In this document: piece after piece, positions 4,042 through 59,160 of the stretch
Numbering within the stretch: the first letter of the stretch is position 1
Layout of the letters: each line of letters starts with the position of its first letter
Virus record (IMG/VR): IMGVR_UViG_3300031994_002305
Span: 37,073-101,072 of that record
Direction: 5' to 3' (one strand)
Source of the DNA: a virus
Taxonomy: Duplodnaviria > Heunggongvirae > Uroviricota > Caudoviricetes
Length of the DNA: 64,000 nucleotides
Notes under the pieces: generated by a model
What the model was told of the DNA's origin: nothing
What the model saw: only the letters and a program-made list of their open reading frames with translations
The model's database searches: none
Position numbers and translations under genes: made by a program

Positions 4042-6521
4042 ATGAACAATGTAATGAAAATTTCTGAGTTAATTGAAAAATTGGAAGAAATTAAAAAAAA
4101 TAAAGGTGATCTACCAATTGGCACAGATGCAAATGTAGATATTGCATATTTGGAATCAGTAAATGTTAACACTCATTATTTTTATGATATTGGAGAACAT
4201 TTTATTCCTAAAGATGAAAAAATTAAAGAACAAGAGTTTGTTATGTTAAAATTTGAATTCTAATTGTATTAAATATGAATAATATTACAAAACTTGCATT
4301 TAAATTCAGAGATTGGTTTAATAGTGATAAATTTCCTGAAGATTTGGAAACTGCAGATGTAGAAGATTGTGTACTAGCATGGGCAGATTATTCTGAGACA
4401 GATCTTGGAGATAATTTTGATGCAGTATGCGAACGTATTGTTGAATTGGGAATATGTTAATATGAAAAAATTTTGCTATTTTTTAATTGGATTTATGTTT
4501 GCTTTGTTTTTCACAACCTTTATGGATTTTGAATTTTCAGAAGCATTACGTAATTATAATTTTGTATATTTAGCAAAATATATTGGTCCTGCTTTATTTG
4601 GCGGATTACTTTACATGATTATTACTATATTTGGCGAACGTTTAGATAAAATTGAAAAAGATATTAATGAATTAAATAAAAAGTAATTATGAAGAATATT
4701 GCTAACGATTACGAAAAGTACGAAACATCAAACAATTATCAGAAGACTAAGAAGCATAATAAGAACAAGTGGAAGTAATTATGAATAAGTCTCTTTATTA
4801 CATTGAATGTACTTGTATTAAGGATTGTTCATATCCTAATATTGATTTTCATATTGGGGATGTTTTCTATTACAATAAGAAAGCAGCTTCAAATGAAATG
4901 TATTTATTTTATTCTTATAAGAATAAAAGATATCCAACAGAACAAGAAAAAGACTATATTGGTGTAACATTTGGTAAATATACTTCTCATATTCCATTTA
5001 CAAGACAAAAAAGATTTGCAAAGAAGTGGGAAATTAAGAGATATCCTGATTGGGAAGCTAGAATAATTAATGAGAAAGGTGAGTTTAATGCTGTTGTAAA
5101 GGAAATTAAAGTAACATACGAAGAGGAGGAAGTATAATGGAAGAATACCCAACGATAATTACTGAATGTTATAAATTACCACCATTTGGTAATTTTACAA
5201 TAGGATCATCATATGTATTACATGAGGAACGTATGAATGATATTGCATGGTTTTGGTGTTATGATGATAAATATGAAAGACACCAATTTCACGAAAAAGG
5301 CTATATTAAATATTTTAAATAATGAAAGAATTAACAGATATTGTAAAAGATTTTGAATTAACCTCAGGAGCGTTTTTAAAACATTATTGTGTTTTAGGTA
5401 TTAAATGTTTCTATGATATTATCGAAGGAACATGGGATAATAAACCTTATAAAGATTTTATCTTATATGTATCTACTCCTAATTCAAAAGATATGTATAA
5501 TGCCAATGTTGCAAGAGAAACAATTATTGATGAATTAACAGATACTAATAATTGTTATATGGGCATATATGCAAACTATGATGCAAACTATGATATGATG
5601 AAGGATCGTACTGTTATTATTCTTCGTAAATATAATGATGATAAAGAATTGTATTAATTATGAAAGATTTTAGTAAAGAACCAATTCGTATTGCCCACGT
5701 CATTCTTTGGCGTAAAGGTTGGTATCAACATAGTGGTAATATATATGATTATGATTCTACTATGAAAGATATTCGTGAAATGCTGAAATATGATGGTTAT
5801 GAACCACAGTTTATGACTAACAAAGATGTAATGCATATTATAATCAGAGCATACGATGAATATTTTCTGTGGGCATTAAACAATAATGTATCTGGTTTTT
5901 ATGATCCTTTAATGAGTGTTATTACTGGAACATATCATAATTGTTATCCAAATAATCCATTTATGTTTAATATGGTACTTGAAATTCTTGCGAAGTTTGC
6001 TTGGGTTGAAACAAAATATTTGAAGTTACCTACGCCACATTATAATAAAAATACATATAAGATAGGTTGTTATAAACCAGGTATGACATATACTTGGATG
6101 AATAAATATGCTAAAGAAACATTTGAACAACATGAAGTGGTATAATGAATCAAATTTTGAATTAAGAACTGGTACTGTATATGTAGTACATTATTCTGAA
6201 AAATCTCGTAAGGATGTTATTACACAAGATAAATTAGATAAAGAAAAACGTGATACTACATTTAAGTATGACCCTACTAAATCATTTGTAAAGGAAGGAC
6301 GATGGTGGAGTCCAAATATGTCTACACCATTTGTGTGGGCGTTTCATTTCAATAGAATTAATTGGAAAAATGCAAAGGCCTGGATTTATGAAGAAGATTT
6401 GTTACAAGAATATTATGCAAATAATGAGAAGCCCGTAGAACCAGCGGATATTGTAGAAAAATTAAATTTATCTGATGAAAACTTAAATTTATCTGAAATT
6501 CAAGTGAATAAATTAAGATAA
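4042..6521 (+). other. Run of about 8 small hypothetical CDSs
   Basis: Abutting or overlapping + strand ORFs (4042, 4275, ~4462, ~4781, 5137, 5322, 5660, ~6132). Confidence 0.7.
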
Positions 6522-13512: not shown

Positions 13513-13541
13513 AAATTCTAATGAAATTATTTATATAATAT

Positions 13542-13576
13542 TTGAATTTTTAAATAAAAGAACTATATTATATTTG
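13542..13576 (+). promoter_or_regulatory. Conserved phage promoter with overlapping TAnnTTTG
   Basis: TTGAAT-N16-TATATTATATTTG. Confidence 0.75.
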
Positions 13577-13597: not shown

Positions 13598-13885
13598 ATG
13601 ACAGTTTATCAAATTACAATTCAAAGTTTTTTCAATTCGAACAATACCGATTATGCAATGCCAGTCGATAGATATACTGATGTAATTCTGTTTAGAAAAA
13701 GTGCAGATGCTGACGAAAAGTTTAACGAACTAATTGATGAATATGTAAATAGATACTGGGAGAAGAACGGACATCAGTCAAATGAATTCCTTCATTTTGG
13801 TGCCAATAGTTGTACGGTGATTTATCACGATAAATCAAAAACAAATAGAACATATATTTCATTAGATCCTAAAGAACTTAATTAA
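13598..13885 (+). CDS. Hypothetical protein
   Basis: 95-aa ORF after a promoter. Confidence 0.7.
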   Translation: MTVYQITIQSFFNSNNTDYAMPVDRYTDVILFRKSADADEKFNELIDEYVNRYWEKNGHQSNEFLHFGANSCTVIYHDKSKTNRTYISLDPKELN

Positions 13886-13964
13886 AATATGAATAATAAG
13901 AATAAGCCACCACCTGTTTAAATATCATATTTTGAATTTAACATTACATATAAATAAAAAAACC

Positions 13965-14445
13965 AATAGAAGACGTAGTAACATCTCAGCCGCGTGGTTT
14001 TATCCAATAATGGTTTTTGACAAGGCGCAAACAAGTCCACGACTATGGTAAGAGACCGACCGATTTAAGTTAAATAGAAGGGTTAATTAATATAAATGGG
14101 AGAGCGACGCGGAAACTGCTCAGAACGTCCGCACAAAAATATGGGGGATTCTGAATAATGAAGATTAGAGATTCTACCTTTTAATTTTAAATGAAACATA
14201 TATAATTAATGGTTCTAAAAGATAATACCAGACAAATATGTTCTGCTTCATTCCGTTTCGATTAATACTCGAATAAAGAAGATAAATTATATTTGAAACT
14301 CATCTCAGATTTAAACGTATCTGACACGCTGACGGACAGTGGAAGAAACATGAGAAAATATAATTGTGAATATATAATCTGCATGGTGATATGGTAGTCA
14401 AGTTATTTGAAGAACCAATCAAATATTGAGGAACTCAGGTTCCTC
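13965..14445 (+). ncRNA. Candidate large structured non-coding RNA (~480 nt), class unknown
   Basis: ORF-free and locally GC-enriched, with many nested helices, ending in a terminator. Boundaries are approximate. Confidence 0.6.
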
Positions 14446-14452
14446 TTTATTT
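14428..14452 (+). terminator. Intrinsic terminator
   Basis: GAGGAAC-TCAG-GTTCCTC followed by TTTATTT. Confidence 0.75.
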
Positions 14453-14517
14453 GTTTCTAGAAATTTTATAAATAAAACAATAAAATTTCTATATTAATAT
14501 AAATAAAATTCTTATTA

Positions 14518-14661
14518 ATGAAAAAAATAAAATATTTTCTTGGAGAAATAATGTATTGGTTATTTATACCTTTATCTTTGTTTTTTCTTGTTATAATTGA
14601 AATATTTAATATTTTATACAATTTTTTTTATAATTTGATTAAGTTTAGAAAAATATCATAA
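14518..14661 (+). CDS. Small membrane protein (47 aa)
   Basis: MKKIKYFLGEIMYWLFIPLSLFFLVIIEIFNILYNFFYNLIKFRKIS; not in the ORF track. Confidence 0.45.
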   Translation: MKKIKYFLGEIMYWLFIPLSLFFLVIIEIFNILYNFFYNLIKFRKIS

Positions 14662-14669
14662 TATAGTAT

Positions 14670-15530
14670 ATGACTATTGATATAAAAGGACATTCTGGAT
14701 GTAATATTGATATTATTGAAGAAGACGGTCATTTATATGTTAAAAAATCTACTAAAGATCCAAAATATAAAACAAGATTAACTTTACAAGGTAATAAGCA
14801 AAGTAATGATATGTGTTTGTGTGGGTCTATTACAAATCCACATATATATCGTACTGAAGTAAATGATGATGAATGTTTTATTTTGATGGATTATATTTAT
14901 GCCAAGAATTTTATAGATTATTTTGAACATGCTTCTGCTTCTGACATAGATCATTTCATTAATACATTTGTTATATATATAAAAACAGAATTAGGTAAAT
15001 GTACTAAAGAAAAAGTTAAAAAAGAAATTTTTGTTAATAAATTTAATTCTGTTGTTGAAAACTGTAAAAAGAATGAATTGACTAGAGATAACAATAGAGT
15101 TAAAATGATTTTAAATGATTGCAAAAAAGTATTTGATAATATGCCTGAAGAGATAATAATGCCTGTAGGTGTATGTCATGGTGATTTGACATTTTCAAAT
15201 ATTTTATTTACATCAAATAGTTTTTACTTTATAGATTATTTAGATTCATTTATTGAAACACCAATTCAAGATATTGTTAAATTAAGACAAGATACAAAAT
15301 ATTTTTGGTCTACTATGATGTATACTAAAAAATATGATATTGTACGTCTTAATATGATATTTAAATATATTGATAATAGATTAGTTGAAGAGTTTGGAGA
15401 TATAGAAGATTATTTCAATAATTATGATAGACTTCAACTAATGAATATTCTTAGAATTCTTCCTTATGTTAAAGAAGAGAAAGTTCGTGATTTTGTTTTA
15501 AATATATTACAATCATTGCCTAAATATTAA
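14670..15530 (+). CDS. APH/choline-kinase-like phosphotransferase (probable sugar kinase)
   Basis: GHSGC, VKKS, CHGDLTFSNILF, FID. Confidence 0.8.
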   Translation: MTIDIKGHSGCNIDIIEEDGHLYVKKSTKDPKYKTRLTLQGNKQSNDMCLCGSITNPHIYRTEVNDDECFILMDYIYAKNFIDYFEHASASDIDHFINTFVIYIKTELGKCTKEKVKKEIFVNKFNSVVENCKKNELTRDNNRVKMILNDCKKVFDNMPEEIIMPVGVCHGDLTFSNILFTSNSFYFIDYLDSFIETPIQDIVKLRQDTKYFWSTMMYTKKYDIVRLNMIFKYIDNRLVEEFGDIEDYFNNYDRLQLMNILRILPYVKEEKVRDFVLNILQSLPKY

Positions 15531-57860: not shown

Positions 57861-57877
57861 CATTTTTTATATAATAT

Positions 57878-57912
57878 TTGAATTTTTTATATTTTATTCT
57901 ATATTATATTTG
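57878..57912 (+). promoter_or_regulatory. Conserved phage promoter with overlapping TAnnTTTG
   Basis: TTGAAT-N16-TATATTATATTTG. Confidence 0.75.
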
Positions 57913-58429: not shown

Positions 58430-58465
58430 TAATAAAGTATTTTGTAGAAAAATTTTAAATAATAT

Positions 58466-58493
58466 TTGAATTTATTAAACTAAGTACTATATT
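58466..58493 (+). promoter_or_regulatory. Conserved phage promoter
   Basis: TTGAAT-N16-TATATT. Confidence 0.7.
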
Positions 58494-58787
58494 ATTATTG
58501 TAATTATTGAAATTAAATTTTCAAATTTATAATAAAATAAAAAAATATGAAAAGGAAAAAGAAGTCATTAAATTATAAAGTTCATCCCGATTCATATATG
58601 TATTTTGGAGAGGCAATTAAAGATCGAGTTATTGGTGACGAATATTTTTCTGTAGATATTTAATATAAAAGTTATGGGACCAGATAAGTATCGTAAGTAA
58701 AAAAGTTTCCTGAAACTATAAATCAGGTGGCGGCCTCTTGGAAAAATTCCAAGTTGTAATTCAAACAAAAATATAAAATAAAGAATT

Positions 58788-59111: not shown

Positions 59112-59125
59112 AATTTTAATTATAT

Positions 59126-59160
59126 TTGAATTTTTTAAAATAGATACTATATTATATTTG
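59126..59160 (+). promoter_or_regulatory. Conserved phage promoter with overlapping TAnnTTTG
   Basis: TTGAAT-N16-TATATTATATTTG with leader TCAAACAAATATG. Confidence 0.75.

Follow-up and report, generated by a model that had tools for sequence, protein, structure and literature searches.

A modular structured RNA with probable translated mini-ORFs in the DNA-modification cluster of rumen and gut jumbo phages

Long leader RNAs with proline-codon mini-ORFs (very short open reading frames) are known from the Salmonella mgtA (mgtL) and mgtCBR (mgtM and mgtP) genes. These attenuators are structured RNAs of several hundred nucleotides (nt) with more than one very short ORF, one of them containing consecutive proline codons, with a speed of translation set by EF-P and charged transfer RNA (tRNA), and they have an intrinsic terminator at the end. 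The same combination was found in the window, i.e. the whole stretch of 64,000 nt of tailed-phage DNA that was analysed, which is part of a 376-kb IMG/VR virus record (IMGVR_UViG_3300031994_002305; 26.9% G+C). There, upstream of a kinase-like gene (14670-15530), a region that we call the unit very probably encodes a real structured RNA carrying translated mini-ORFs. Unlike the Salmonella leaders, the unit appears to have its own promoter as well as a promoter-like motif behind its terminator, and no alternative terminator/antiterminator pairing was found in it; its peptide sequences are conserved beyond their codon content, it is located in a phage DNA-modification cluster, and it has no sequence or Rfam relation to those leaders.

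Arrest motifs in short nascent chains offer a second comparison. Three consecutive prolines (PPP) are an established EF-P-dependent stall motif (PMC5021804), and +X(+) and XP(X) are erythromycin-dependent arrest motifs (PMC6238534). At the core of the SecM and RAPP peptides, an arginine three residues before a proline cannot be replaced; the RAPP-like set comprises RxPP, RAGP and RAPG (core R-[A/G/S/D/P]-P-P), and its third position tolerates little change (PMC12992588).

No similar DNA was found in the phage collection by blastn or megablast. A relative of the kinase-like gene led to a 254-kb contig, in which the ORF-free gap has four collinear blocks in common with the window, and scans with exact motifs, which found only two relatives in IMG/VR, added a 435-kb contig. 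Exact-motif scans of JGI metagenomes gave no new contig, the remaining matches being chance ones in coding DNA. A protein search with the kinase returned about 1,600 homologues, and the contigs of twelve of them added eight distinct homologues of the RNA; the source assemblies are from cattle rumen and pig gut, and the contigs are up to 468 kb long. In total, 10 other rumen or pig-gut jumbo-phage contigs carry homologues (named by L numbers where needed), and the counts of 11 below include the window's own unit. All 11 units are located between sugar-nucleotide genes (nucleotidyltransferase, HAD phosphatase, epimerase) and kinase and glycosyltransferase genes, within the DNA-modification cluster. 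The unit is absent from three related gene arrangements (L041-43, L049-51 and L055), in the first of which the epimerase gene adjoins the kinase gene.

The most conserved blocks of the unit are three mini-ORFs, which lie in and just before the part (13965-14445) where the initial annotation, made from the sequence alone, had proposed a large structured RNA, and which were absent from that annotation:
13889-13921, plus strand: mini-ORF A, MNNKNKPPPV, with the polyproline core N-K-P-P-P
14033-14039, plus strand: conserved box AAGTCCA, with the ATG of mini-ORF B 5-6 nt downstream; its AGTCC is the 5' strand of helix H1
14045-14068, plus strand: mini-ORF B, MVRDRPI, with the core R-D-R-P written AGA GAC CGA CCG
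14158-14184, plus strand: mini-ORF C, MKIRDSTF, including AATGAAGATTAGAGATTC, a stretch that the window, L002 and L003 share unchanged

The core of mini-ORF A, xNKPPPx, is present in 9 of the 11 homologues (absent in L002, degenerate in L003); three consecutive proline codons stand in frame, as in the polyproline stall motif, and all 5 variable columns of the nine aligned copies are third codon positions. Mini-ORF B occurs in 13 copies in the 11 homologues. Its form is M-[A/V/P]-R-D-R-P-x, varying by AGA/CGA, GAC/GAT, CGA/CGT, CCG/CCC and TAA/TGA, and two phages have the variant M-x-R-A-S-P-K, differing from each other at three synonymous sites. R-x-x-P is kept in all 13 copies and in upstream paralogues, save for one R-to-Q change at the third position, and the AAGTCCA box is found 5-6 nt before the ATG in 13/13, even where the pairing partner of the box is missing. 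The six copies of mini-ORF C differ in four codons, all of them synonymous (ATT/ATC, AGA/CGA, TCT/TCG/TCA), vs 0 synonymous and 4 non-synonymous in each of the two other frames. By hand count, the cores of A, B and C together show about 20 synonymous variant codons and 1 non-synonymous one, AGA/CGA at codon position 1 included, and every copy retains its start codon and a stop codon, either TAA or TGA. Synonymous change thus far exceeds non-synonymous change, and does so in frame only, as expected of protein-coding mini-ORFs.

B-type extra copies (MIKSRDRPx, MIRDRPxx), with the frame kept, are located upstream of the folded part in five phages (L045, L053, L054, L058 and L059), and are sometimes tandemly duplicated together with mini-ORF A. 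The motifs RDRP, RD[RS][PT] and PPP are found in none of the other mini-ORFs of up to 16 codons in the window's genome (11,385), and behind the core of 4-5 residues neither the kind nor the number of residues is fixed (0-4 follow RDRP). In pig-gut relatives (L045:7000-7660, L044 and L046), the pair of mini-ORFs MMNTNKPPPNFQ and MIKSRD(R/Q)PI is tandemly repeated at least 3 times; an assembly gap (a run of N) lies inside this array, in which the number of copies probably varies or was reduced by collapse during assembly.

The mini-ORFs are written in the rarest codons of the phage. The proline of mini-ORF B is CCG or CCC in 13/13 copies, vs 3% of proline codons genome-wide, the threonine of mini-ORF C is ACC in 6/6 copies, vs 2% genome-wide, and the second arginine of mini-ORF B is CGN, never AGA. 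Within their codon families, CCG makes up 1.7%, CCC 1.3%, ACC 2.1%, TCG 2.3% and CGG 0.2% in the genome, and none of the 78,152 codon pairs of long ORFs is CGA-CCG. The mini-ORF cores are under both peptide-level and rare-codon selection. The lack of a Shine-Dalgarno site before them is normal, since the phage hardly uses such sites: of 232 long ORFs only 3 (1.3%) have a Shine-Dalgarno-like core, and the start regions are rich in A and U, with a preference for T at -1.

One explanation of these data could be that the unit is a micro-operon, in which peptides of 7-10 residues (NKPPP, RDRP and IRDST types) are the product and act on a host or phage target, the RNA only stabilising the message or tuning its translation. 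Peptide-level conservation with synonymous drift agrees with this, as do the tandem paralogous copies in the five phages listed above and the apparent possession of a promoter and a terminator. However, free variation behind the core suits a nascent-chain motif rather than a folded or binding peptide, the consistent use of the rarest codons is hard to explain if peptide yield is the aim, and the RNA modules are equally conserved and covary, so that peptide products seem unlikely to be the purpose of the unit.

As nascent-chain motifs, K-N-K, R-D-R and K-I-R fit +X(+), and R-P-x fits XP(X). The ErmDL leaders of MRLR type share such cores and the very short ORFs (PMC6238534), but no resistance gene follows the unit, and the match may partly be due to chance in Lys/Arg-rich coding by an A+T-rich genome. 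With the RAPP-like and SecM peptides (ApdA, ApdP, ApcA and SecM; PMC12992588, PMC10951233) mini-ORF B shares the arginine three residues before the A-site proline near the C-terminus of a small ORF; its second core residue is alanine or aspartate, both at least partly tolerated in those peptides, and the residues after the core are free. The defined RAPP-like core is absent, since the third residue is arginine or serine instead of proline or glycine. Moreover, the mini-ORFs have 6-10 residues, too short to fill the exit tunnel, whereas the known RAPP-like members need the region adjacent on the N-terminal side, and no protein-localisation gene lies downstream of the unit.

The RNA around the mini-ORFs is folded into the following elements:
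13971-13986, plus strand: hairpin P1, AGACG / CATCT with the loop TAGTAA; it covaries with AGATG/CGTCT, AGGT/ACCT and GAGG/CCTT
13989-14026, plus strand: helix P2, GCC 13989-13991 / GGC 14024-14026, enclosing two conserved GGTTTT tracts
14102-14132, plus strand: H-type pseudoknot, in which S1 (GAGC 14102-14105 / GCTC 14118-14121) is interlaced with S2 (GCGGA 14109-14113 / TCCGC 14128-14132)
14146-14150, plus strand: 3' strand of helix H1, GGATT, 8 nt before mini-ORF C, pairing with AGTCC of the box
14210-14417, plus strand: 3' domain, one long irregular hairpin with helices X (14210-14216/14411-14417), Z (14221-14226/14402-14407) and Y (14227-14230/14392-14395)
14231-14391, plus strand: apical extension of Y, with helices E1 (14285-14293/14357-14365), E2 (14299-14303/14350-14354), E3 (14305-14310/14319-14324) and E4 (14327-14331/14337-14341)

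These elements are combined in a modular way. Mini-ORF B with its AAGTCCA box, the 3' domain and the terminator are common to 11/11 units; the P1/P2 hairpins form a 5' module in 8, and the central pseudoknot domain is present in 6 and missing in the rest, the window having both. The apical extension of 140 nt is restricted to the window, L047, L054 and L056.

Covariation was counted in four domains against 500 shuffles and against slid partners, the latter giving values near zero. Compensatory base changes beyond these controls, as expected of a structured RNA, were found in each domain. In P1 and P2, with 79% of cells paired, both partners have changed in 9 pairs, and the covariation score is reached by 0/500 shuffles, P2 covarying with CTGAA/TTCAG and GTGGA/TCCAC. 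H1 with S1 and S2 is paired in 97.6% of cells (4 pairs changed on both sides, 1/500 shuffles), the five other pseudoknot copies reading GGGT/ACCC and GGCGA/TCGCC; H1 itself is 100% paired in the six sequences that have the central domain, and in 5 of these 6 a small hairpin around the start codon of mini-ORF C shares sequence with the 3' strand of H1. Helices X, Z and Y of the 3' domain are present in 11/11, and the six short forms have 96% of cells paired and 6 pairs changed on both sides (0/500 shuffles, slid controls 0-1); L053 keeps the architecture of this domain with different stem sequences. The apical extension, in its four sequences, reaches 98.9% paired cells with 6 pairs changed on both sides (0/500 shuffles). 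Several pairs are G-U and fit the plus strand only. MAFFT had put helix E3 and a 55-nt pseudoknot module (see below) out of register, and those stems were checked by hand, which verified E3; covariance model R1, which represents the short 3' domains, did not extend across the 140-nt insertion, so that the long forms were aligned only in their 3' halves, and alignment A6 was not used.

The homologue search and covariation test suggested in the initial annotation thus gave 10 homologues and four covarying domains, and they sorted the helices that it had listed. Its apical helices AATTATATT/AATATAATT, CTCAT/ATGAG, TCAGAT/ATCTGA and CGCTG/CAGTG are real, and all but the first, which is invariant, covary; the GCGG/CCGC stem that it considered a possible pseudoknot is S2. 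The proposed helix CGTGG/CCACG is not conserved, the long-range pairing GACTA/TAGTC is complete only in the window and one of the 10 homologues tested, and TAGAA..TTAATTA/TAATTAA..TTCTA, judged by eye and not by a tool count, is unconserved A+T-rich spacer that competes with the covarying helix X. Folding energy proved only marginally better than that of shuffled controls on the plus strand (z of -1.9 over the entire region and of -2.0 in either half), and it was even lower on the wrong strand (-4.2). The case for structure rests on covariation because of this marginal energy.

A further pseudoknot-like module of H type and 55 nt, AUCC..GGUGG..GGAU..AAAGUUCG..CGUUACAA..CCACC, occurs once or twice in six relatives and not in the window:
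L058:4437-4494 and 4570-4627
L059:4434-4489 and 4568-4623
L047:9381-9496
L003:2898-2957
L060:2281-2340
L053:5507-5568
It takes the place of P1/P2 directly upstream of mini-ORF B in L058, L059 and L053, in the last of which the design is kept with both stems changed (ACCU/AGGU, GAGAG/CUCUC). The module has no Rfam match.

One more short frame lies within the 3' strand region of helix Y:
14383-14397: four-codon frame ATG GTG ATA TGG TAG
A frame of the same length, AUG/UUG-N-AUA-N-stop, is present in 10/11 homologues, but its fourth codon covaries with helix Y and no peptide is conserved. This frame follows the helix and not the peptide, and RNA and peptide constraints are therefore distinguishable in the unit. 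Its size recalls the lambda bar minigenes.

The behaviour of the helix-Y frame is one of several observations that would suit an ornate RNA of a new class that acts in trans and is purely non-coding, its ORF-like blocks being RNA motifs that are open by chance. Strong covariation in four domains and the absence of any ORF of at least 60 amino acids (aa) point the same way, and G+C-rich 'rare codons' are to be expected of a structured RNA in a 27% G+C genome. Nevertheless, A, B and C vary at synonymous sites, including AGA/CGA and TAA/TGA, without compensatory partners, the same short frames recur free-standing upstream of the folded part, and their motifs are found in no other mini-ORF of the genome, which makes this explanation quite improbable.

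Known RNA families did not account for the unit either. The search with cmscan of the whole window against Rfam 15 at gathering scores returned only 5 tRNAs, with no match to ROOL, GOLLD, OLE or RNase P, which the initial annotation had named as families to check; at E values up to 10, the region 13800-14700 gave only chance-level matches to unrelated families, four homologous loci had no Rfam match, and ARAGORN found no transfer-messenger RNA (tmRNA) and no tRNA in the region. These results agree with the earlier remark that hallmarks of RNase P, tmRNA or introns are lacking. ROOL, GOLLD, OLE, HEARO and other large RNAs of Rfam, together with RNase P, tmRNA and introns, are ruled out as far as these tools can tell. 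The unit resembles ROOL and GOLLD in its size class of about 500 nt, phage location, ornate multi-domain fold with a pseudoknot, and rumen or gut origin, but, unlike them, it gives no cmscan match, is not located beside tRNA genes, contains mini-ORFs and has modular, variable domains. Of the large ornate phage RNA proposed at first, a conserved structured RNA with a pseudoknot, a terminator and no Rfam family is retained, while the ROOL/GOLLD assignment, the purely non-coding nature and a single fixed fold are not.

Some other identities were considered and rejected. A string resembling GATTCGAC, and a pseudoknot with an A-rich tract behind it, suggested a tmRNA, but a tRNA-like domain is lacking, ARAGORN gives no match, and the real tmRNA of the phage is encoded elsewhere. 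RNase P was considered for AAAGTCC...GGGCTT, but no model matched and the strands are only about 100 nt apart; the likeness of the AAAGTCC box to the 5' strand of RNase P helix P4 is only superficial. In L047 the apical extension contains CTGACGAG...GAAAC, which recalls a hammerhead, but the core is not kept in the window and there is no Rfam match. Group I and II introns gave no covariance-model match.

The ORF-free gap itself holds as first described: no ORF of at least 60 aa is present in 13886-14517 on either strand with code 11, and neither TGA=W (code 4) nor TAG=Q opens a gene there. Its G+C is 0.35-0.42, compared with 0.10-0.25 in the flanks. In such a place, where related phages have other small genes and the flanks are A+T-rich, one might suspect an intron, a replication origin or the remains of a protein gene. 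We give this next to no credence, since no longer frame appears under the alternative codes, covariation and conserved terminators show selection on the RNA, no intron or ribozyme matches and no pair of split flanking exons were found, and the unit is single-copy in the phage genome, both by sequence search and with model R1 (two genome sites matching ACAA..AAGTCC are ordinary coding DNA). The decayed gene and the replication origin, which had been named beforehand as possible refutations, are thus disfavoured by the alternative-code scan and by covariation.

The limits of the transcript are suggested by three elements:
13541-13570, plus strand: promoter-like motif TTTGAATTT-N13-CTATATTA, recognised by motif enrichment and by conservation upstream of the unit
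14428-14453, plus strand: intrinsic terminator GAGGAAC TCAG GTTCCTC (hairpin of 7 base pairs at 14428-14445) followed by a T run
14455-14497, plus strand: second promoter-like motif TTCTAGAA...CTATATTAA, located between the terminator and the small membrane ORF that precedes the kinase gene

The general form of the first motif, TTTGAAWTT-N(8-16)-CTATATTA, usually continuing TATTTG, has 4 matches in the window (13541-13570, 57877-57906, 58465-58494 and 59125-59154) vs 0.01 expected, three of them in the tRNA region, and it is present upstream of the unit in 11/11 homologues. It is similar to the Bacteroidota promoter type with TTTG at -33 and TAnnTTTG at -7, and the copy at 13541 probably starts the transcript that carries the unit. 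The terminator noticed earlier at 14428 is confirmed; all 11 units have one, with different hairpin sequences in the homologues (GGTACC.., GGCAGCC.., AGAGGTAC..; four different sequences overall), each followed by a T run. Inspection of the 11 homologues revealed no conserved segment complementary to the 5' strand of the terminator, i.e. no antiterminator, and therefore the unit looks self-contained, as if transcribed independently, beginning with the promoter near 13541 and ending with the terminator at 14453.

The kinase operon follows next on the same strand, within about 250 nt, in 7 of the 11 phages, and 5 of these 7 have the second promoter-like motif. In the remaining 4 a convergent gene follows, which is not present in the window and encodes a protein of about 637 aa with a Cthe_2159 carbohydrate-binding domain:
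L002:1970-3883, L003:3799-5709, L044:7962-9881 and L060:2456-4375, minus strand: Cthe_2159-domain gene between the RNA unit and the kinase gene
With the promoter-like motif behind the terminator and the convergent next gene in 4/11, any regulated target, including the kinase operon in cis, is at most putative.

This bears on the possibility that the unit is a classical leader-peptide attenuator, in which stalling decides whether the terminator at 14428 is passed into the membrane-ORF, kinase and glycosyltransferase genes. Such a mechanism would explain the combination of short ORFs with regulatory-looking codons, a structured RNA and an intrinsic terminator, as in the mgtA and mgtCBR leaders, and is in line with the same-strand kinase operon in 7/11 phages and with unit-less relatives in which the epimerase gene adjoins the kinase gene, suggesting a single operon. 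It is nevertheless distinctly unlikely, given that no conserved alternative pairing that would disrupt the terminator was found (the only one seen, between H1 and the start-codon hairpin of C, is local), that about 245 nt separate the end of the last peptide-conserved mini-ORF from the terminator, and that a promoter-like motif or a convergent gene follows in so many of the phages.

The small protein ORFs around the unit are not homologous between the phages, and it is the RNA that is the conserved element, because these neighbours are not conserved:
13598-13885, plus strand: ORF of 95 aa between the promoter motif and mini-ORF A
14518-14661: hydrophobic ORF of 47 aa (..EIFNILYNFFYNLIKFRK..) between the unit and the kinase gene
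In the relatives the 95-aa ORF is not kept, mini-ORF A directly following the promoter or a different small ORF standing there, and a pattern scan with the protein upstream of the unit gave no relatives. The 47-aa ORF is probably the gene of a small, conserved membrane protein; L047 and L053 have similar small ORFs with the motif NILYNFFYN at the corresponding position, where L058 and L059 also have ORFs.

The reading that we tentatively favour, as a plausible rather than an established one, is that the RNA acts by ribosome pausing and sensing and represents an undescribed family in rumen and gut jumbo phages. Ribosomes would load on the mini-ORFs and then pause, likely sites being the polyproline of A, the Arg-x-x-Pro of B and the very rare codons (CGA-CCG, ACC, TCG). 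The time of the pause would depend on translation capacity, i.e. on EF-P and on the supply of rare tRNAs, including the tRNA-Arg(ACG) of the phage. Ribosome occupancy might then remodel neighbouring helices, for example H1, which joins the box before B to the sequence before C, and the RNA may report the state of translation onward via the conserved 3' hairpin domain, possibly in trans; another output could be read-through into the kinase and glycosyltransferase genes. Any particular output of the RNA is, at best, unlikely when taken singly.

Several observations weigh against ribosome pausing and sensing. The covariation of the pseudoknot, in all four pairs, comes from one lineage only, as the window is compared with five near-identical copies, and the z-scores of single-sequence folding are only about -2. 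RDRP and RASP differ from the RAPP-like set at the third position and fall outside it. Mini-ORF B is directly preceded by a C-rich sequence (AAGTCCACGACT), which is not typical of start regions in this phage, and the rare G+C-rich codons might instead reflect constraint at the RNA level. The absence of a conserved antiterminator, the promoter-like motif behind the terminator and the convergent next gene in 4/11 phages belong here as well.

The phage genome encodes about 64 tRNAs (G000:C1:328000-347200), including a tRNA-Arg(ACG), which would read CGA, and two tRNA-Pro(TGG), together with a tmRNA:
G000:C1:103338-103744: phage tmRNA with the tag ANDELVDDAWLNSWEYRMAA, about 2.3 kb beyond the end of the window
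Among the tRNAs there is one with a CTA anticodon, of the amber suppressor type, and two odd calls have anticodons of 4 and 2 bases.

Heavy translation of very short ORFs with the rarest codons could also serve as a trap, sequestering host tRNAs or ribosomes in the manner of the peptidyl-tRNA drop-off caused by lambda bar minigenes, and helping the phage to gain control of translation; such minigenes are likewise tiny rare-codon phage ORFs whose translation matters rather than the product, and a phage with its own tRNA-Arg(ACG), tRNA-Pro(TGG) and tmRNA would fit such a strategy. A tRNA trap, however, would need no conserved peptide identity, and the lambda bar minigenes have only 2-3 codons and are not known to have a conserved peptide or an attached structured RNA, unlike the unit. 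We regard the trap as very improbable.

Returning to ribosome pausing, a more speculative and rather doubtful extension is that the unit belongs to a new class of phage RNA, a stand-alone transcript in which modules of pseudoknots and mini-ORFs park ribosomes in order to gauge or manipulate the translation capacity of the host (EF-P, rare tRNAs, rescue systems). Such a class would fit a giant phage, because 64 tRNAs and a tmRNA are carried.

For the discovery of non-coding RNA, the unit is a caution that G+C-rich, ORF-free, covarying regions of A+T-rich phages can hide translated micro-genes. The peptide motifs NKPPP, RDRP/RASP and IRDST and the codon pair CGA-CCG can be tested for pausing in Bacteroidota-type translation, which proceeds without Shine-Dalgarno sites. 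If the favoured reading is true, giant phages of the gut and rumen would hold a modular RNA that couples tiny frames of stalling type to pseudoknots and hairpins, and this would be a way to read or steer translation that has not been described for phages.

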